A stretch of 64,000 nt of DNA, taken from the NCBI RefSeq assembly GCF_025526975.1, contig NW_026515690.1, positions 1 to 64,000 of the forward strand. Reading direction: 5' to 3'. Origin of the DNA: Fimicolochytrium jonesii (lineage: Eukaryota). The notes under the pieces are model-generated. The model was not told where the DNA came from. It saw only the letters and a list, made by a program, of their open reading frames with translations, and made no database searches. Positions 48,678 to 63,223 of the stretch are shown piece by piece (within the stretch, counting starts at the first letter, position 1; each line of letters begins with the position of its first letter). Both the position numbers and the translations under genes were made by a program.

Positions 48678-49912
48678 AGCGATGGGGTTGAAATCATGTA
48701 CGTAGGCTAGATAGCGGAGACTCCAGCACAAGTTTAGCCGTATTTTCTGTGTTTTTGTCCTTTTTTTGGTTGTGCTTCCCTTTCGTCGTCGGCCCTTACG
48801 GCCTTCATGTTATCGTCGTGGAACGGACTGGCTCCAGAGGCGACGGAGATCAGCTTTTGCTTGGAATACCCGACCATTTTTTTCATGGCCATTTATTCTT
48901 CTTTGATGTACATCCCTTGACTTTCCCTCGTACATCTTTGGAGTGGTTAGACGAACTCACCTTCAGTGCCTGCCCTGATCAACAATTTTTTTTCGGAGAT
49001 TACCATGACATCACTTCTTTAGGCCTTCTAAGGTAAATCAGTTATAGTGGTTACAACTCCAAGTGAAACTCTGGAGTCTGGGCAAATACAGGATAGCACG
49101 GGCAAAGGTGGAACCTCACAACCGAGCATCCCGAATTTTACTACGATGAATGGAGACCCTGACTCAAGAGCCAGCTAAGGCCAGAGCAGTTGACGGATGT
49201 GACACTTCTTTGGGCTTCCGCGTCAGTCCAGCGAATAGCAGGACCAGGAACCAGAAAATGACAGCCATTTGACGGAGGGCAGATCACGCATCCCTGCGTG
49301 GCTTTTCGCGCCCGCCGACGGCCAACTCGTAAAGTTCTCCCGAGTTCATGGCCGCACACGCACGGTCTCGAAGAAGGCTGAGAAGGTGTGGACGGGCTCA
49401 GGGAGTGTACAATACGTACTGTACAGTACTGTACAGTATGAGAGAACATGATAATAAAGCGAAGGGTATTACCGGGGACCGACAGCCTGTTGAGCAGATT
49501 CCCCAAAGTGAGGCTTGGCCCGCGATTGAAGTTGTGTTCTGCGTGTCGCCCCTCTCGCTTGTCTTGGCCAACTTCCGCCCGCAAGGGACCGCCTAGCCCT
49601 CGTTATTCCTTACGACCAAGGAGGCAACCGCCAGCCGTCTCCTTTATTCTTTTCACGAAGGCACAGCCAGGCGAGATACCGTTCGGCAGGTCAACACCTC
49701 TGGTTCATAAGCTTGCATGCAACCTGTCAGACTCTCCGAAGCGCATTTCACACTTCCGCCTCCAGCCTTCTTCGGAGTGTTCCCCGTTGGGCAACCACTA
49801 CCATCGATATTCAACCATTACATTGCAGACTACCTTATCCCGCACATAGCTTCATTTTTTGAGAGAAGAACAGATAACAACGTCTTGGAAGCACGGAGAC
49901 CGCTGATCTAGT

Positions 49913-52900
49913 ATGAACCCTCCAGCGACTTTCGGGGAAGGTCGGCCCTCGCAGGATTTCAATGGGTATGAACGACCTCTACCCACCTTACCTCAAAACC
50001 AGTACCGGCCTTCACCACCAGGGAGCCCGATGCCGATACACTTTCCTGTTCCACCACCTCATATGCGCTTGCCCAACCCGAACGCCTCAACAAGCAAACC
50101 TCTGGCACCTCACGAAATGATTGCTTTGGCGAACACGAAGAATGCAAAGTCTGGGGGTGGCGGCTGGTTGAAGAAGGTCGTGGTCGGGTTTGGAAAGAAA
50201 GGGAAGCTGCAGGATGCTTTGGGCGGCGGAAGTGATACCGGCTCAAAGCCGACTGGAAACGCCCGAGCCTCGCCTTTGAGCTTGGCAAACTACCAGAACA
50301 TGCCCGCGGCATCGAAACCCAGTACAGATCCACCCCCTCGCTCACGGCAGTCATTAGCATCAGATTTGAACGAGAGGTCTAGTTCGTCTTTGCGACCAAC
50401 GATTGGATCTAGTGAAAGCAGTGGATTGGAGAATGTGCAAGGGGGGTTCCATTTGGCCACCGCCGCGGAGGACGTCCATGCACCTGCCACGTCCAGGGGA
50501 ACCCCATCTTCCAATCCGTCTCATGTTCGGGACATTTCCTCATCTTCTGGCTCGACACCAGCGCTCGCAAAGAATCAGCCTCGGCCGCAGGGTCCGCGGC
50601 CATTAAGCGAAGCCCCTCTCCAGATGGTCGAAGCTGGTCCCCCAACTCGCCCAATTCCTGGAACGGCCAACACTACATCCCAGCACCCACCGCGGCACAC
50701 AGGGCAATCACTGTCAGGAGGAAGCGGAATACCCACGCCAGTCTCAGGCGTTGATGGCGCGCATGTTCTGCAGTCCGGCGGTCCCATACCACCATTCCCT
50801 AGCCCGCCACTGGAGCTTGACGGACGGCAGCCTGCTGGGAGGCGGCATCCCAATTTACCACCCTTTGAATCTTTGAATGTGCAGGACGCAACCGGTGAAA
50901 CTCCACCACGTTCACCAGACTTGCGAAAGGGAGGACTGCCACATCACGTAGATAATCGCCCCCCTTCACGCTTCAGTGACGAATCCGGACGCCGGCTGGT
51001 ATCACGCGCAAGCTTGCCATCGCTTCAGAGCAGAGGAAGTGGATCGACGGGTTACCCGAAAAGCGACGTCTCCTCCTCGTCAGGGCCCGCCGAAGTTTCG
51101 CGAAATAGCGGGACATTTTGGACCGTGAAGCGATCTCCAGGATCCAGTGCTCCGCAATTGGCCGTAAAGGATTCGGACATTCTGTGCCCGAACTCGTTGA
51201 TCAGCGAGTTGGCGCCTTGGGAAGCCTCGGAGATCTCGAAGGAGGAGTCGCTGGAGCACTCCATCCTTCAAGAAGTGTCCAACACGACTGCAGGAGACAC
51301 TGGAGGAGGTGTTGGGGACGTTGGCGATGGCACAAAGAAGGTAGCACGGAACACAGGGAGCCCCCCAATACCGGCGAAGGACCGGGCCCCCGGAGGAGCA
51401 AGTCTTCCTGCAAGTATCCCACCTCGACGAACGGCGCAGCCTTTCGGCACCCCGACGGATAACTCAGTGGGCAGAGAACATGTGTCTCTCGCTGGCCCTC
51501 TAAATTCTGGCCCAAGTACCTACTCTCTCCCCGCCGACCGAGGTATCTCCAATCTCAATCACAAAGGTGACCCGTCGCTCGTCTCGCTCCCCAACATGCA
51601 TACCGGAGGTCAACGAAGGATGAAGTCACCACCTCGCTGGGAAAGTTTGCTGGATGAACAAGCTGGAGAGCCCCTGGCGAATATGACGAGGACAGGCGCG
51701 AGCACAGAGAGAAGAGAGAGTACTGGAACGCCAGCGGAGCAGACGGAAACACTGCTGACTGCGCCAACGCCTGAGGTGCAAAACCGAAACAGCGTTCAAG
51801 CTCCAGAACCGAGGAATTCGCCGGCTGCCCACCAGCCTGCTGCAATTGCCTCACCTGCAACTGTTTCGGATGCTGAGCCAGACTTGAATAGGTCCGGTTC
51901 CGAGATTTCAGAATCTACCGCACCGCACTCCGAGATCGTCATGCAGCAGGTCACCGAACAAGGCCCCGTCACCACCGCTTCCTCCGTCTTGTCCAAGGTC
52001 GGCGCTGCGGCTGGAACCGTCATCGGAGCCGTTGCTGGCGGCGTCGTCGCTGCTACACAGGTTGCCACCGACGTTGCCTCGCTTGCCGTTGGCCGCCCTC
52101 ACGAGCACAATACCCTCCCCGCCGAAGACCGCGGCGAAGAGGAAGCCCACAGCATTCCGCGATCTGACACCGCTGCACAGATATCCAAACCGAAGCCTGA
52201 CATTGTTGCTGGAGATGATGTGGCACTGCCGCCGCGAGGAGACTCGTTGCGACCAGCCCCACTGGAATCATCCTTTCTCTCGTCCTCGTCGATGACGGGA
52301 AGCCCCTCGGAAGCCGCTCCGACAACCTCTGCGATAGAGGATAGCTTGGTTACTGCAGCTTCTGTCACTTCTCCGCAGCTCGGGTACAGCCCAGGGATTC
52401 CACACCGTGATGGCACCTTTGGCCAACAGGTTGGGTCCGCTCAGGCACCGATTGCGGAAGGGCATCTTCTTTCTGTCTCGGCCACACCAAACTTGCTTTC
52501 AGAGTCCCCAGAACTTGAGACTCCCATCTTGAGCCCCACAAGTCCCTTCTCGGCTATCTCCGATGGAACCACAGTCTTCGGTCATGACTCACTACATCGA
52601 GCGGCGGATTCCCTCGGAAGAAGCTCCCTTGCGAGTACCGAAAGTACAGCGGCAACCGACGCTCCATCTAGGGCTGGATTGTTTTCTGACCACGATCAAA
52701 CGCCATCTCCAGTATCGCCTTTTGAGGAGACCTTATCGCCACCGGAGTTTGCTGGAGCCGAAATTTCAACAGATTTGGGCTTCTTGAACCCGACAGGTTC
52801 TACCGGCGCAAACAGCCAAAGCTCGGAGACTCTGGCAGTACCTGCTGTACCGCTTCTTTTCAGGGCCATGGAAACCCCGCAGGCGACACCTCCAACTCCC

Positions 52901-55900
52901 TCCCCTGCGTCTTCGTCACACGAAGACGAACAAGCGCTTCCGGGAGCGGCCGGTTTGAGACCTAGCGCCACTGCACGATTACGGGACCGCGTCAAGAACG
53001 TCATGGCCAAGCATCGTCCATCGTTAGACGGGCAAAGGCCGAGTGCCGCGGATTTGAATGGAGTCAATGGGCCGTCTGTTGCCGCTGCTCCCCGGTCGGC
53101 ACCGATTCTGGGCGTGGATGATACCAAACCTGCCACAGGCCAAACTCTCCGGAATATTGCATCGAATGAATCCATTGGGGACAAGCGACGATCCTGGGGA
53201 CACCCGAAACTAAGCATTGTCACTCAAGGTCTACTTCAACCCTCACTGATCCATCACCAACAAGATCCGCATGTTATTCAGCATGCGCAACCCGACAAGC
53301 GCGCTTCTTATAGAAGCGGGAGCACAGCGTCCATATCCTCCGCGTCATCCACGACAGCCAGACAGTCAGTCCGCCCCGCCGCACCTACCCGCACCGTATC
53401 CCAAGCCCCTAGTCACGGTTCTTCGGACGGACCGTCAGAGACGAATGTATACCCAGCTCGAGGCGCTAGCCTTCAAACGTCCGTGGTACGGCTCCTGCCC
53501 ATTGTCGACACGACCTTACCGTCACCTCCTGTTCACGTGTATAGCGATATGACCGATGCGTACGCAGATGATGGAGACGTTTCACCAGAGACCATGGCGC
53601 CGCGTCGAGTAGTGCAGTCACCCGTGAACGAAGGCGGCGCGGAATCGGAGTTCTTCATTTCACCAACCGGTGGCTCTTACTCATCCGCGCCCGTCGTTCT
53701 GCCTGCTACGCCCATTGAGCCAACCTTCCCAGTCGAGGACTATGCGGCCCAGCCGTCTCCATCCACCAGTGCTGACGGACCCTCCACTCCGCGATCACTC
53801 ACAGCAAGCGTGGAGGCGGTTGAGAACGGAGCCTTCGTACCGAACAGAAGGTCGTTGCAGGTCAATGGAGCTATTCAACATGCGTACCAGAGGGTCTTGA
53901 GGAAGTATGCCAGTTTTTCGATTCCCGCGCATGCCAATCCAAGTCTGGCTTCGATCATAGAACAGAATGAGGCGGAAGCTGCGAAGGACGGCCCCGGCGA
54001 CGAGCAGTGGAGGCCAAGAGATGGCTCGATGAACGGACACTTGATGGTTGAAACTGTCAGTGGTAGAGCTGAGCACTCTTTGAACGGCATGGCCCGCGAG
54101 ACCCACTTTGACGAGGAGCAAGAAGCAACCGAGCAGGACCGCATCAGTGATGGTTCCCTGCATTCGTTTCAAGACTCAATCTCCGGAGATACGATCTCTG
54201 GGTTGGACAGTCCTGCGGAAACAGGAAATGCTGATCGCCGAAGTATCGGAGAAGGAGATTGCTTGCAACATCAGCATATTGGAGCTGAAGCTGAAGAGGA
54301 CCCACTGCCTCCGCGAACAACGTCGCAATTGGCGTTGAACGCGCCGCCCGTCAATGGCCACCACTTTGACGGACCAAGCGAAGTGAACCTTACTGACGCT
54401 AGGGCAAATCGAGGGCCTTACAAGGCGCATTCGTCTATCAACCTCGGGGCTGCGTACAGGGGAGCTCAACAAGAACCCCCGCAACAAGATCTGGACAAAA
54501 ACCGTCACCTGCAACACTCTATTTCTATGCTCGATATGCAAAGTAGCAGCAGCCCACGGGATCTTGACATTCCGATGGACGTCCCTTCTTCGGCTGCTCA
54601 GGCATTCTTTGACAGGTTGGCCCTTTCGAGAAATCAGCAGCAGCAATCACATCAATCTGGTCACGGCAACGCCTCTTCGTCCGGATTCTTGGCGCCGGGA
54701 CCCATGCGCCAACCGCATTCGCCGTCTCCAAGTTCCCCAGCATCTAATCAACGCTGGGAGTTGGAACCTCCTGCCGTATCATCGGATCCGGACGTTACGT
54801 ACGCGGACTCGGATGATGGCCACGGCCAGGATGTGAACTCAAGCCCGCAGATTCCGGACAGGCCCGGGTCGCCGTACTCGTTTGTGTCCGGTGCTTCCAT
54901 CAGGTTGACCAGGAATCATCCCCGGTTTGCGAACCGTCCGGGTGGAGCTGGTTCAGTGACGGCGGGGGGTGTTGGAAGGAAGTCTGTGGAGGCTTTGGCT
55001 AATGCGCGATCAAGGGACAATATGAAAGGCATGAGGCCGTCACCACAGCCTGAGCAGCCGCAGCAGCCGCAGCAACAACAGCAGCAGCAGCAGCAGCGGG
55101 ATAGGCGCGAATCGGCAGCTTCGGGCGCATCGACGACTCCGTCCGCACCATCTGGGGCAGCACCACATGCCCCTTCCTCGTCGACCTCCTCCGTGCAGCT
55201 GCATGGCAAGCAATCCGGCAAGGATGGTTCAACCCAGCAACTTGACCAGGCGTTACCTCCGCGCCGGGACTCCGCGGACGTGAGGGGAGGTCAAATGGCA
55301 CCACCACATGCTTATCACCAGCAACACCGTCAGCTACATCCGGCACACGGCCCAGCGGGATCTCATGCGTCACTACTCTTCGATCCAAGTCTTCATGCTC
55401 CCCATCATCACTACCCAACCTATTACGACCCGCACGTCGTCGGCCCAGACGGTCGAAGCTCGTACCTCGGCCACCCGCACTACCCTTACGGCCCGCACGC
55501 CTCGGCTTACCTTGCGCCAGCTGCTGGACCGCCACCACCGGGCTTATACGCTGGCCAGCCAATGGTACCCACAGGTTACGGTCCTGATGGATATGCCACA
55601 TTCGATTACAACTATACGTATCCGCAAGTAATGCCGCCACCCCAGCCAGGATACCGTGTCCCACAATTGCAGCATCACGCGTCCATGAGCATGATGCGAC
55701 CCGTTGGGACACCACCCTCAGGAATGATGTACGGCCAACACCCACCCTCTTCGCCTCATAGCGTGCATCGCCATTCTGAAGGCTACGATCGTGCTTCAGG
55801 CGCTGCGTTTGCGTGGCCGCCACCGCCGCATCTCATGGCAGGTGGGACGCTGAACCGATCCCCAGGAGGACAGAGGGGCATGGCCCAGCCGGCGCCATTG

Positions 55901-56131
55901 GCAGGCGCAAATGGCCAGTCCGTCGCACAGCCGCACCCAGGGACCGTGATGGCACCGAACGGACTCCGGAACCCGAACGCGATGGAGCTGTCGCCTGCCG
56001 GAACAAAAGCGACCCCGTCAACGCAGAAGCAAGGAAAAGGTGGCCAGTCTCCACCAAACGGGAAGGCGGACGGGGATAAGGACAAGGAGAAGGACAAGAA
56101 GAAGGGTGGCTGGAAGGGCATATTCAGATAG
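49913..56131 (+). CDS. Very large intronless low-complexity (S/P/A/Q-rich) hypothetical protein, 2072 aa
   Basis: 6.2-kb uninterrupted ORF with a polyQ tract near 55050-55097, a P/Y/H-rich segment and a basic C-terminus KKKGGWKGIFR. Confidence 0.8.
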   Translation: MNPPATFGEGRPSQDFNGYERPLPTLPQNQYRPSPPGSPMPIHFPVPPPHMRLPNPNASTSKPLAPHEMIALANTKNAKSGGGGWLKKVVVGFGKKGKLQDALGGGSDTGSKPTGNARASPLSLANYQNMPAASKPSTDPPPRSRQSLASDLNERSSSSLRPTIGSSESSGLENVQGGFHLATAAEDVHAPATSRGTPSSNPSHVRDISSSSGSTPALAKNQPRPQGPRPLSEAPLQMVEAGPPTRPIPGTANTTSQHPPRHTGQSLSGGSGIPTPVSGVDGAHVLQSGGPIPPFPSPPLELDGRQPAGRRHPNLPPFESLNVQDATGETPPRSPDLRKGGLPHHVDNRPPSRFSDESGRRLVSRASLPSLQSRGSGSTGYPKSDVSSSSGPAEVSRNSGTFWTVKRSPGSSAPQLAVKDSDILCPNSLISELAPWEASEISKEESLEHSILQEVSNTTAGDTGGGVGDVGDGTKKVARNTGSPPIPAKDRAPGGASLPASIPPRRTAQPFGTPTDNSVGREHVSLAGPLNSGPSTYSLPADRGISNLNHKGDPSLVSLPNMHTGGQRRMKSPPRWESLLDEQAGEPLANMTRTGASTERRESTGTPAEQTETLLTAPTPEVQNRNSVQAPEPRNSPAAHQPAAIASPATVSDAEPDLNRSGSEISESTAPHSEIVMQQVTEQGPVTTASSVLSKVGAAAGTVIGAVAGGVVAATQVATDVASLAVGRPHEHNTLPAEDRGEEEAHSIPRSDTAAQISKPKPDIVAGDDVALPPRGDSLRPAPLESSFLSSSSMTGSPSEAAPTTSAIEDSLVTAASVTSPQLGYSPGIPHRDGTFGQQVGSAQAPIAEGHLLSVSATPNLLSESPELETPILSPTSPFSAISDGTTVFGHDSLHRAADSLGRSSLASTESTAATDAPSRAGLFSDHDQTPSPVSPFEETLSPPEFAGAEISTDLGFLNPTGSTGANSQSSETLAVPAVPLLFRAMETPQATPPTPSPASSSHEDEQALPGAAGLRPSATARLRDRVKNVMAKHRPSLDGQRPSAADLNGVNGPSVAAAPRSAPILGVDDTKPATGQTLRNIASNESIGDKRRSWGHPKLSIVTQGLLQPSLIHHQQDPHVIQHAQPDKRASYRSGSTASISSASSTTARQSVRPAAPTRTVSQAPSHGSSDGPSETNVYPARGASLQTSVVRLLPIVDTTLPSPPVHVYSDMTDAYADDGDVSPETMAPRRVVQSPVNEGGAESEFFISPTGGSYSSAPVVLPATPIEPTFPVEDYAAQPSPSTSADGPSTPRSLTASVEAVENGAFVPNRRSLQVNGAIQHAYQRVLRKYASFSIPAHANPSLASIIEQNEAEAAKDGPGDEQWRPRDGSMNGHLMVETVSGRAEHSLNGMARETHFDEEQEATEQDRISDGSLHSFQDSISGDTISGLDSPAETGNADRRSIGEGDCLQHQHIGAEAEEDPLPPRTTSQLALNAPPVNGHHFDGPSEVNLTDARANRGPYKAHSSINLGAAYRGAQQEPPQQDLDKNRHLQHSISMLDMQSSSSPRDLDIPMDVPSSAAQAFFDRLALSRNQQQQSHQSGHGNASSSGFLAPGPMRQPHSPSPSSPASNQRWELEPPAVSSDPDVTYADSDDGHGQDVNSSPQIPDRPGSPYSFVSGASIRLTRNHPRFANRPGGAGSVTAGGVGRKSVEALANARSRDNMKGMRPSPQPEQPQQPQQQQQQQQQRDRRESAASGASTTPSAPSGAAPHAPSSSTSSVQLHGKQSGKDGSTQQLDQALPPRRDSADVRGGQMAPPHAYHQQHRQLHPAHGPAGSHASLLFDPSLHAPHHHYPTYYDPHVVGPDGRSSYLGHPHYPYGPHASAYLAPAAGPPPPGLYAGQPMVPTGYGPDGYATFDYNYTYPQVMPPPQPGYRVPQLQHHASMSMMRPVGTPPSGMMYGQHPPSSPHSVHRHSEGYDRASGAAFAWPPPPHLMAGGTLNRSPGGQRGMAQPAPLAGANGQSVAQPHPGTVMAPNGLRNPNAMELSPAGTKATPSTQKQGKGGQSPPNGKADGDKDKEKDKKKGGWKGIFR

Positions 56132-58098: not shown

Positions 58099-60902
58099 TC
58101 AAGCCAATCCATTCAAACTCGAAATGACATCCCACAACTCATCCTCAAATTCCCCTTCCACTGCCCGGTGCCCTTCAATCACTCCACCGCCGCCTTCTCC
58201 ACCCCGTGGGCCACAGTTCCCGCCACTCCCACTCCCCGCAACCTTAGCCACCCGTCTTCTACCAGTTTTCTTCCCCTTCCTTTCAGCTGATTTATCCGAA
58301 TGGTGAGACGTGTCGGTCGAGTTGGCTTCGATGTCGGAGAGGACGTCGACGAGGGATTTAATCATGGAGGTATCGTTAGGGAAGAGGAGGGAGGCGTCGG
58401 GTTGGTTTGCTGGTGCGGATAGGGGGCGGGAGAAAGGGGGTGCGGGCGGATTTGCAGGGTAAGGGACGGGAGGAGAATGTGTTGTCTGCTGCTGGGGGGG
58501 TGGTGGAGGATGGGGCGAGAACTGGGGCGCCTGCTGGGTTGACACTGGCGGCGTTTGGGCTTGGTCGGACTGCATGAATGAAACCGTTGGCTGCGTCCGC
58601 GTCTGGGTCTGATATGCATCAGGTTGGGCGGCTTGTTGTGCTGGTGCTGCGCGTAGATCGGTCCTTTGTGGCGATATCTGCGTCGCCTGTGAAAGGGTCC
58701 GCGGCTGGGGAGGGCATAGCGGACATACTGGCACTGGATGTGTGCTATTGCTTCGTTGGTTGGGAGAACAGAGTGGACAGATGGTTGAAACCTTGGGTGC
58801 TGGTGGGTCTACGTTGGAGCGGATATAGGTGTGAGGGTAATGTGGCCATGATTGAGAGAAGGAGGCTGGCTGCGGTGCGGTGGACTGCGGGTGTGGTATA
58901 GGCGCAAAAGCCGGTGCATTGCGCTGCCCCGACGACCCATGAGGGGCCGCAGGAGGTGCCTGTCGAGGGTTTATGTGTGGCACGGAAGTTGACCGTGGGG
59001 CGTTCATCTGGTGATCAAAAGTCCCCGGCCGCCATCTCTGAGGGGGCGATTCAGGCCGTGGTGGTGGATCCGGCGACCGCGTGGTATATCCGTCAGCACC
59101 CACATTGCTCGAATAACCAGACGCGTAATACGACGTGTCCCGAGAAATCTGCAGGGATTGTGATTGGGACAGCGAGGCATCCTGGGATATTTGCAAGGAT
59201 TGCGAATGGGATATAGAGGATGGTGCCATTGACGTTGAAGAGTCGTTCTGGAGCGGTATGGAGATGCGCACGAATTCGGCTGGGCTCGATGATGTTGACA
59301 GATACGCAGAAGACTGATTGGACGGAATGTCCCGCGCGTGGACGTCCTCACTCAGTCGTGGAGGAGGTGCATAGGTCGTTCTGGATGTGGTGAAGGGTAT
59401 AGGGGACGTTGCCCGATCCGTCACTTTGATGACAACGCGGGTGGGATGGTTATGACTGTGCGTGGGGTGATGGCTCTTCTGATGGGGCATCCTACTCAGT
59501 TCGGGTTCGTTGGATTTGCCCGAGGACCGTCTGTGCGCAGCGGAATCTGCTGCATTATGGCTTTTTGTTTCCGCTGACGGCTCGAAACGCACACTAGAGC
59601 TTGGTGCTGCCTGAGCGCTCAGAAAACGCTCTAACGCCTCCGCCATATCCACTGCAGCTTTCTCCTGTGTCGGGACTTTCTGAGGTTGTGGAATTGGTCG
59701 GGTGTTTTCATTTGCCTCTCTCGTTCTTTCACTCGCTCTATTTCCAGTTAGTGATCGTTCTTTTCGAACCTTCCCATGGGGTCTTGGTGGCTTTGCGTTT
59801 GCGACAGTCGCGATAGAGGGGTGCGGTATCCAGGGTTCGGTTTGTGAATGGGAATTCATACTGGCGTTGCTGGGTCGATCATCGCCCACCGTGATGTTCG
59901 TCTCCACCAAAGAGCACGTTGATAGAGATCCAGAGGAGTTCAGCGGCATAGAGCCCAATCCAGAATCACGTTGCTCAGTATCATGTTCCCTTCTGGCATT
60001 GTGTGCGGAAGTGACATTGAAGCGTTGTACCGGACCTTCTGCAGTCGCCGGGCCTTTGAAGACATGTTGAGTAGCTGTTGTTGCATTTGGTGCTTCAGTA
60101 AGCATCCGAGTGAGTTTCGCAACTTCGCCCTGTTCGCAATGAGAGATACTTCATTAGTTACGATGACGCCGGTCCTCCTCCCAGACATCGACTTTCATGG
60201 ACAACGCACGTGGAGTTTTTGGAGCACTTCCAGCTCCAAATGGGAAGCAGAACGATCCGAGCTCTCCCCACTAGCGCTCGGCTTCTGCAGTCCTATTACT
60301 TCGGCTCTCGTGTGATCGATCTGCACTTCATACTGTCGCAACAATTCCTCCGCCTTCTGCAGCCTCTTCGCTATCGACCTGTTTTTCTTCACAACGTCCA
60401 GCTTCTCAGCCTCTGTTTTTGCCAGTTCGTCTTTGCAAGCATCCAAACCGTCTCGCACTTGCTCTACTTCGTTCTCGAGTTGCGCCTTCTGGTCTTCCGC
60501 GATGGCTAACTGCGTGACAAGCGTAGCGAGCTTTAGACGGTCCTCCTCACAAAGCGCCGACAGCGTGGCACCGCCACGTTGGAGCTGCGGAGGTAGGAAT
60601 ACGCCAGCGCTTGGTTTGCTGTTGTCTGGTTGTTGATACTGTAGCGGCTTTCGTATATGATGTGATCTTGTCGGCTGCGGTGCCTTACGCGTCCGCGCAG
60701 GAGGACCTGGAGGTTGCACTATTTCTTTTGGCGGAGGCTGGAAGAAGGTGTTTGTCGGGAGCTGCTCCCAGTGCGGTGCGGCGACTACTGGATGGCACTC
60801 GCACTGATGTAAAGGCCTGTGGCATCCAGAGAATTTACCCTTCAAAGTAAGTCCGGTGCCTAATGTTCCTCCCCTTTGCTGACGACTCCTCGCGGCCGTC
60901 AT
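58099..60902 (-). CDS. KIAA1328/hinderin-like coiled-coil protein (2 exons)
   Basis: TLSALCEEDRLKLATLVTQLA followed by a coiled coil ending ELLRQYE resembles the conserved KIAA1328 L..LC.ED...A.L...LA segment as I recall it; long disordered tail. Confidence 0.55.
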
Positions 60903-61501
60903 CGTACTGCAGTCACCCCGATGACACGCCCCTTGCCCGCGATCTCGCCTATGCAGCTGTCGCTCCCTGGACTATTCAGCTGCCCAAAAGCTCGTCTGCT
61001 ATGCCCACAGGGGCTGGTGGGATCTTTAAACAGCGTTGTAGGAAACTTCCTCACGTTTTGAGACCCATCTTTTGGCTCAGATTTCACGCGCCTGCACATG
61101 CATGCATCACGCGTCAGCTTTAGAGCAATGGAGAGCTGGATGTGAGAGTTGGAACTTGTGGACACTGGACACACTCCCGACTCTGAACCCTGATGGGCAT
61201 TTCACAGCAACGACGCTATATTCGCTACCATGTGCGGTCGCAGAACACATCTCGGGAATGTGGAAGATGCATCCATGGTGAGCTGGGCCCCAGTGTGAAG
61301 GTGATTTCTTGTTCCAAGAGACGGAACGCGTGAAGTTTAAGTCCCCGCACGTGACAGCCACCCGCCGCATTACAATCTCTGGCATCACTCGCGGGCGGTG
61401 TCGGGTCGACTTCGTCGTCGTCGGCAAAGCACTTGTAACCACTTGCCTCTTCGTTTTTCCCCAACGCTCACCCACGTACCTTATCTTGAAGCGACACGAC
61501 G

Positions 61502-63223
61502 ATGGCGTCCAGGCTCTCTAACGTTGCTCGGCTCGTGGCCGCTCGCAGGACTACCTCTGTGGCGGCAAAGGTAAGCAGCGCAGCTCGTACAAAAGTTTCC
61601 CGCCAGGTCTGCATGAATTGAGCGGAATACGACACGGGTGAAAACGAAGCCTGGGGGTTGCAAACGCTTCTGGTAGAGCGGCCACTTCCGGAATAGTGGT
61701 ACTCATAGATAAAGGAATCGGGACTATACCGACGAAATAGGACGACGACAGGATTACTGTCTGTCTCCAGGGTCGTGCGCGACCTGCTCGATCGCGCATG
61801 TGAATGGAAGGGTGTGGGAGAACGGGCTACGGTGGTAGTTACTCTCAACCAAGAAGCTAGGCCGACCTAGGTCTTGTGAGACTCCACCGACTGATGGAGA
61901 TAGTTGACCTCACGATGATGGGCCCTTGAGAAGACGGAAGTGATGTGCCACGACTGCGTCTAACGCAACGAATTTTTCCTCATCAAAAGCCTGTGGCAAC
62001 TGCTACCCCGATCGCGCACGGTCACTCTTTGGTCGTTCCATACGTGCACAACCCCCTCACGGATTTCAAGAACGGCGTGCCTGAATCACAAGTTCGGGAG
62101 CTGAGGCCACAGGAGAAGAAATGGGACTTCTGGACGACCTCGGAAGCTTTCCTGGAGAACAAGCCCAAGTTTGGCGTACGTACTATTTCCCGACGTGATG
62201 AGGGATTTTTCTAGTTTTTGTTCGTCTTCGATTTGGCTAACCGATGCTGGAAACGCACAACAGGGTCTCAGCTGGGTTCCTGCCGGTGACATCTGGGTCA
62301 TTTCGCGTGCTGGAAAGTACCACAAGACTTGTGAAGCTGGAACACACTTCCTGATCCCTGGACTGGACAAGATCAAGGCGGTCAAGTCTGCTCACCCAAT
62401 CGCCATGGGAGTTGTGACACCTGGTGCCGCCACTAAGGGTGAGGAATTGCTGTGTATATGGAATATCTGCTGAGAAAAGCATTCTTATGATTCACGATTT
62501 AATAGGAGGAAAGCAGGTTGACGCTTACGCCGTTGTGTACCTTAAGGTCACCAACCCCGCTGCCGTAAGTGCTTGTAACGCAAACTTGGATTTATCTCGC
62601 CAGCACCCAACGATTGACTTGCGCTTGCCCACCCTTACAGTCTGCTTTCTACGTCGATACTGAGAGCAACACCTTCGACTCGGAGCGCGCCGCCGCCAAG
62701 GTTGTTCGCCGCGTTCTGGAAAGGGAAATTGCCAACGCCCAGGTTGGCTCCGACGGCGAACTGTCAGCATCCGACAAGTCCAACATCATCAACAAAATCA
62801 CCGCCACGCTGAACGCGCAAAGCGACGATTTCGGTCTTGAGGTTGTGCGTGCTGAGGTCCGCGGCGCCTTCCCCACCGACGCCAACATCCCCGACAAGCT
62901 TCGCGCTCTAGACCCCCCGATTCGTGACGCCGACGAGGTCGGTCACGGCCTCAGCGCCGACTACTGGTCCGAGGTCTTGACACCACCCTTCTTCGAGAAG
63001 CGCACTTTCGGAAGCAACAAGGAGATCCGTACCCCCGCCACTGTTTCTCTGGAATGGTGTATCCCATCTCCTCCCGACTACCATCACTTCAACGAGGTAT
63101 GCCAGGTGTTCCGTGTTTCCCTTCCCACATTCAAGATGAATTCGCTAATCAAATTTGTCTCCATTCAATCAGCCCGCGAGGATGGTCGCTTCCGCTCCGG
63201 GAGCCCCTGCGAAAGCGCACTAA
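61502..63223 (+). CDS. Mitochondrial SPFH/band-7 (stomatin-like) protein with a C-terminal Cox1-C-terminus-like motif (6 exons)
   Basis: Presequence MASRLSNVARLVAARRTTSVAAK; SPFH pattern VP....WVI.R.GKYH.T...G.HFLIP.LD.I, TK.G..V....VVY.KV.NP..S.Y.V, FGLEV.R.EV; tail YW....PPFF...SLEWCIPSPPDYHHFNE|P. Confidence 0.8.

Follow-up and report, generated by a model that had tools for sequence, protein, structure and literature searches.

A nuclear gene of the chytrid Fimicolochytrium jonesii joins an SPFH domain to a homologue of the Cox1 C-terminal tail, which is absent from chytrid mitochondrial cox1

Why should a nuclear gene of a chytrid fungus, encoding a stomatin-like protein with an SPFH domain, end in the motif that closes mitochondrial cytochrome c oxidase subunit 1 (Cox1), and what has happened to the mitochondrial copy of that motif? 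A nucleus-encoded C-terminal piece of Cox1 is known from protists as Cox1-c or Cox1C (Gawryluk and Gray 2010, as described in the available portions of PMC5664110, PMC5374615, PMC12699882, and PMC13632651), and two reviews state, in the portions available, that split cox1 has not been found in fungi. With the protist splits already known, what appears to be new in Fimicolochytrium jonesii is a fungal case and an SPFH carrier. The original prediction knew of no description of this fusion, and our literature search, with subscription journals mostly outside its range, returned no account of it or of cox1 truncation in chytrids; nor does either appear in the accessible parts of PMC7050145, PMC10884005, and bioRxiv 10.1101/2024.05.25.595893.

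The gene occupies positions 61502-63223 (+) of the window (the whole 64,000-nucleotide stretch that was analysed) and has six exons with canonical splice sites. Its 331-aa product has the sequence of P0001, an 'uncharacterized' protein of F. jonesii at NCBI. The parts of the gene are as follows.

61502..61570 (+), exon 1, aa 1-23: first stretch of the predicted presequence; aa 1-34 hold five R/K and no D/E
61990..62175 (+), exon 2, aa 24-85: end of the presequence, then a conserved family-specific segment, aa 35-85
62264..62438 (+), exon 3: start of the SPFH/Band 7 domain
62506..62564 (+), exon 4: SPFH domain; the gene model is that of P0001
62641..62880 (+), exon 5, aa 164-243: end of the SPFH domain, with no coiled coil or Band_7_C after it
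62881..62940 (+), exon 5, aa 244-263: linker, conserved in part (majority fraction 0.61)
62941..63096 (+), exon 5, aa 264-315: homologue of the Cox1 C-terminal tail
63046-63096 (+), within exon 5: tail core, SLEW..SPP..H.F
63082-63084 (+), His311: opposite the His of the Cox1 PPPxH motif in the alignment
63097..63172 (+), intron 5 (GT..AG): splits the motif between Glu315 and Pro316, in agreement with P0001
63173..63223 (+), exon 6, aa 316-331 and TAA stop: Pro316 completes the Cox1 motif; the remainder is variable

The motif peptide quoted in the original prediction lies in frame +3 at 62959-63096, and exon 5 as a whole spans 62641-63096. One contig of X1, a single RNA-like run that covers only intron 1 of this gene, has intron 1 spliced out between exons 1 and 2.

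The protein belongs to the SPFH/Band 7 superfamily by both sequence and fold. The Pfam Band_7 match covers aa 90-237 (E 3.9e-14) and ends at position 143 of the 176 in the model, with no Band_7_C following. In the AlphaFold2 model, the SPFH part has a pLDDT of about 88-97 and the fold SPFH1+SPFH2, and the best Foldseek matches to this part are all SPFH structures (E 6e-10); the free tail has a pLDDT below 50, and ESM Atlas matches to it all fall below 0.9. The N-terminus looks like a mitochondrial presequence, and targeting to mitochondria is predicted: judged by composition only, aa 1-34 contain 4-7 R/K and no D/E in all 24 full-length orthologues checked, as anticipated for a stomatin-like carrier that supplies a presequence. 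None of six family proteins checked has a stretch of transmembrane grade. Between presequence and SPFH domain, the segment at aa 35-85 (62023-62175) is conserved to a degree similar to that of the SPFH domain (majority fraction 0.67), with W68, W71, T72, and S74 invariant in 35 sequences. It has no Pfam match, and its ESM Atlas matches all fall below 0.9; the segment could provide another site of contact with complex IV or with the membrane.

That a nuclear SPFH protein ends in the Cox1 C-terminal motif was the central claim of the original prediction, and profile comparisons bear it out in an intron-containing gene. A hidden Markov model of 26 Cox1 tails, searched against 2218 six-frame segments of the window, selects exon 5 at E 8.8e-10, the next segment scoring E 1.6. 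Because those 26 sequences had been chosen as tail-bearing, the search was repeated with an unselected set of C-termini from 67 of 68 non-chytrid Cox1 proteins, and exon 5 again stands apart (E 3.4e-8; next, 3.2). Profile-profile alignment of the fusion tail with the Cox1 tail by hhalign yields a probability of 96.1 (E 2.8e-9), and a search of the PDB with a profile built from 23 of 37 fusion tails places Cox1 C-termini in the top 11 of 14 matches (best E 0.016).

Two results would fit a chance or convergent likeness with no relation to complex IV. Searched as a single sequence, the tail has only a weak match in the PDB (E 1.2), although all four matches are Cox1; and the fusion-tail profile recovers no Cox1 at E 0.001 from a library of 1.84 billion proteins, because the motif is short. 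Profile matches in both directions at E 1e-8 to 1e-9, together with a distribution of the fusion that mirrors the loss of the tail from mitochondrial DNA, make such a coincidence very hard to credit.

The tail is also the most conserved part of the protein. Among 53 sequences, the tail core forms the top block, with a mean majority fraction of 0.82 versus 0.58 for the SPFH domain, and all 53 retain the His of the Cox1 motif; loss of the motif from orthologues, named beforehand as one of two outcomes that would count against the fusion, was not what we found. The tail is a homologue of the Cox1 C-terminal motif, the conserved His included. The W..P.FF element of the pattern originally given for Cox1 tails occurs in fungal and some other Cox1 proteins and is missing from bovine Cox1.

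If the tail is encoded in the nucleus, the mitochondrial gene may lack it, as the original prediction implied for this organism. Chytrid mitochondrial DNA is read with code table 16, in which TAG specifies Leu (PMC6131824, available portion), and a scan for cox1 patterns with TAG read as Leu yielded eight loci, three of them chytrid type. The other five were set aside as tail-bearing, green-alga-like cox1, a label that reflects our reading of the sequences. One locus, L007, holds a full cox1 with a TAA stop about 20 residues past helix XII, and no tail is present in any frame within 1021 bases around and after this stop. The L007 protein as a query retrieved 120 Cox1 sequences, 58 of which bear a tail. 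In a tree of the Cox1 core, 52 of the retrieved sequences together with L007 form one clade that contains every named chytrid and Harpochytrium (support, 1.0 in FastTree; SH-aLRT of 83 in an IQ-TREE subset of 38 of 121 rows). A tail occurs in 0 of the 53 members of this clade, several of whose 47 unnamed sequences are partial or possibly stopped early at TAG and not all of which are independent. The six named members, all relatives of F. jonesii, are without exception tail-less: Spizellomyces 'palustris', S. punctatus, Synchytrium microbalum, Blyttiomyces helicus (whose Cox1 C-terminus is irregular in appearance), Rhizophydium sp. 136, and Harpochytrium JEL94. A full tail in mitochondrial Cox1, the other outcome named beforehand as counting against the fusion, was thus not seen in these relatives either. 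The fungal sister clade (Allomyces, Blastocladiella, Capillidium, Turbinellus, and six unnamed sequences) has the tail in 10 of 10 members. In run X1, contigs matched only short internal patches of a related chytrid cox1 locus and stopped short of its 3' end.

In many truncated chytrid Cox1 proteins, a Trp lies within a few residues of the C-terminal end (L007:1480-1516; P0040, P0041, and P0042), close to where the intact LANNYW motif has its Trp, and the two halves of Cox1 may overlap at the break point. Ten tail-less Cox1 proteins among the 120 fall outside the fungi. Eight non-fungal sequences of about 495 aa without a tail (P0119, P0120, P0131, P0133, P0135, P0138, P0141, and P0152) probably come from protist lineages with split cox1. 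Scans of viral contigs produced one non-chytrid cox1 contig and one short match; the contig listed as L001 and L010 (an IMG/VR contig filed among giant-virus bins) has cox2 and cox1 open under table 4 and is most likely mitochondrial contamination.

The range of the fusion matches that of the truncation. Searches returned 37 and later 51 homologues, every named one of which is a chytrid; they cover the Spizellomycetales, Rhizophlyctidales, Rhizophydiales, Chytridiales, Cladochytriales, Synchytriales, Polychytriales, and Lobulomycetales. A tail profile added Gorgonomyces and two members of the Monoblepharidomycetes, Hyaloraphidium and Gonapodya, each with an SPFH domain; both fusion and Cox1 truncation extend to that class. 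Three species have both halves on record (fusion and truncated Cox1, respectively), namely, S. 'palustris' (P0003/P0040), S. microbalum (P0007/P0041), and B. helicus (P0025/P0050). Among named matches there is none from Batrachochytrium or the Neocallimastigomycota, many matches being without a species name, and the lack of Neocallimastigomycota was given no weight. In a tree of SPFH domains rooted on three SLP-2 sequences, the monoblepharids branch first and groups for Spizellomycetales and Synchytrium are recovered, with weak deep support, a pattern as expected under vertical descent.

Which SPFH protein supplied the carrier is suggested by profile scores. The fusion profile assigns 48-71 bits to chytrid SLP-2 proteins, 46 to QmcA, 25 to stomatin, and 15 to prohibitin, which, by score, places the domain closest to the SLP-2/paraslipin group (SLP-2/STOML2, paraslipin, and QmcA-like proteins). 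The alignment of the fusion protein with chytrid SLP-2 breaks where the SLP-2 coiled coil starts, and the Cox1 tail sits there in place of both coiled coil and Band_7_C, as had been noted for the position of the coiled coil in stomatins. The fusion protein is therefore a derived paralogue and not an SLP-2. Like SLP-2, it has the SPFH1+SPFH2 fold, a predicted presequence, and no transmembrane helix; unlike SLP-2, to which it is only about 25% identical, it carries the Cox1 tail, has the extra conserved N-terminal segment, and evolves faster. Canonical SLP-2 is retained as a separate gene in addition to the fusion.

Three database proteins of 611-648 aa (P0011, P0012, and P0224), from Siphonaria, Phlyctochytrium planicorne, and Polyrhizophydium, which represent two chytrid orders, consist of a complete SLP-2 followed by a complete fusion protein. 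We interpret them as tandem genes, SLP-2 directly upstream, that annotation has joined into one model, and they therefore point to an origin by tandem duplication of SLP-2. P0224 is misnamed 'Synaptotagmin-like protein 2' in NCBI. In F. jonesii, no SLP-2 gene is present in the 64-kb window, so that the two are not adjacent here.

The source of the tail is indicated by its nearest Cox1 counterparts. When the fusion-tail profile is compared with the 58 mitochondrial Cox1 tails, the best three all belong to the Allomyces/Blastocladiella clade (31.6, 30.1, and 29.9 bits), the best outside it reaching 28.1 bits. Only in the five members of this clade does the match extend back to profile position 3-4, where LANNYW..P.FF stands opposite L..DYW....P.FF of the fusion tail. 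The last roughly 45 residues of the intact Allomyces and Blastocladiella Cox1 match the nuclear tail along its length; in contrast to the chytrid fusion, their tail is encoded in mitochondrial DNA and is contiguous with the 12-helix core. These matches favour a transfer from a fungal mitochondrial DNA and make it likely that the chytrid split is independent of protist Cox1-c.

Alternatively, the tail could descend from an ancient nuclear cox1-c of early eukaryotes that was kept in the fungal line and fused only later, an option that concerns the origin of the tail alone and that we regard as rather unlikely. Reviews leave a single early transfer possible (PMC5664110, available portion), the upstream half of the tail, taken by itself, has no significant score against any Cox1 tail (best, 3.9 bits), and our comparison was with mitochondrial Cox1 tails, a search of the PDB with a Cox1-tail profile having found no separate Cox1-c subunit. 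An ancient origin is at odds, however, with the position of both the top three scores and the longest match in the Allomyces/Blastocladiella clade, and among non-chytrid fungi, for which few matches are named, no free nuclear tail protein was recognised. Transfer from fungal mitochondrial DNA, the origin that we favour, still leaves clear likenesses to protist Cox1-c, namely, an SPPxxH motif on a nuclear gene, a truncated mitochondrial cox1, and an N-terminus resembling an import signal. The chytrid case differs in its host lineage, the fungi, and in its SPFH carrier, of which the available portions of the cited accounts make no mention; the greater similarity of its tail to fungal mitochondrial tails suggests a separate origin.

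What, then, would the protein do? It brings together three parts, namely, an N-terminus resembling a presequence, an SPFH domain of SLP-2 type that lacks the coiled coil, and a Cox1 tail, and we consider it likely that it enters the matrix and completes complex IV in trans. In intact Cox1, the C-terminus lies on the matrix side, and its His has been proposed to control proton entry (PMC5664110, available portion). From the sequence comparisons, we infer that the ancestor shared by Chytridiomycetes and Monoblepharidomycetes transferred the 3' end of cox1 to its nuclear genome, where this piece took the place of the coiled coil in a tandem SLP-2 duplicate, which would have provided expression and targeting for the tail; the mitochondrial tail would have been lost afterwards, once. 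The fusion protein would be imported via the presequence route and its presequence removed, and the tail would pack against the matrix face of truncated Cox1, bringing back the conserved His proposed for the proton entrance. The SPFH domain, unable to build its usual cage, would remain on the matrix face of the inner membrane, physically tethered to complex IV as an extra domain. Import, processing, and membership in complex IV are predictions of this reading. The stronger proposition, that this is the first split cox1 in opisthokonts, arose by an independent transfer from fungal mitochondrial DNA, and made an SPFH domain a fixed complex IV subunit through the Cox1 tail, is in our estimate evenly balanced. 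A complex prediction for S. 'palustris' Cox1 with its own fusion tail, in which alignments were unused, scored 0.00 and was counted neither way.

The compartment deserves attention. Mammalian SLP-2 is located in the matrix. According to a plant review, SLP resides mostly in the intermembrane space (PMC3986555, available portion), a location that would not suit a tail acting on the matrix side. As to the tail itself, Diplonema has a tail-less Cox1 for which no Cox1C was retrieved (PMC12699882, available portion), and the tail may therefore not always be needed.

A different role would be that of a transient assembly factor, whose tail binds truncated Cox1 during assembly while its SPFH domain serves as a scaffold in the manner of SLP-2 or prohibitin, with the protein absent from mature complex IV. 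Band-7 proteins have been discussed as scaffolds for respiratory-chain assembly, and prohibitin makes transient contacts to cytochrome c oxidase subunits (PMC3986555, available portion); conservation of the SPFH fold and of the N-terminal segment would also agree with such a role. Yet the tail of an intact Cox1 belongs permanently to the enzyme, COX1C of Acanthamoeba migrates together with complex IV and has been confirmed by immunoprecipitation-mass spectrometry (PMC13632651, available portion), and the fusion protein lacks the coiled coil with which SPFH scaffolds are built. We therefore hold an assembly factor to be improbable and retain a lasting place in complex IV as the preferred reading.

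The SPFH domain might instead have been a carrier only, which gave the tail a promoter and a presequence and is now cut off or idle while the tail alone works; this option also takes Cox1 to be split and departs from the preferred reading in the role given to the SPFH domain. Across three species pairs, identity is 47-64% for the fusion SPFH domain, 71-82% for SLP-2, and 64-78% for the tail. The SPFH domain thus evolves faster than SLP-2 and has long branches in the SPFH tree, so its role may be minor; in Gonapodya, it is degenerate. The domain is nevertheless present in every full-length orthologue found, those from Monoblepharidomycetes included, it still folds confidently at the pLDDT values given above, and both linker and N-terminal segment are conserved. 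Nor was any protein consisting of a presequence and then a tail recognised among 31 tail matches, which remained after two of 33 (P0266 and P0267) were set aside as unrelated repeat proteins. A mere carrier is accordingly the less plausible option, though a good deal less remote than an assembly factor, and an SPFH domain attached to a respiratory complex is what the preferred reading predicts.

A fungal split would correct published statements that neither fungi nor the relatives of animals have a split cox1, and close intact outgroups are available for asking whether the split was one ancient event or recurred at the same point. Capture by a duplicated mitochondrial gene would be a route for piecewise gene transfer. 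The His proposed for the proton entrance of Cox1 would be encoded in the nucleus and so open to mutation in a free-living chytrid, and fusion and truncation together would, if true, be a synapomorphy of Chytridiomycetes plus Monoblepharidomycetes.

Elsewhere in the window, a 2074-aa open frame at 49907-56131 (+) is without a Pfam match, and a coiled-coil-like gene at 58099-60971 (-), upstream of the fusion gene, has a weak ATG16 match only. The remaining large frames are ordinary genes (PSME4, SWIRM, Tel2, and Sel1).
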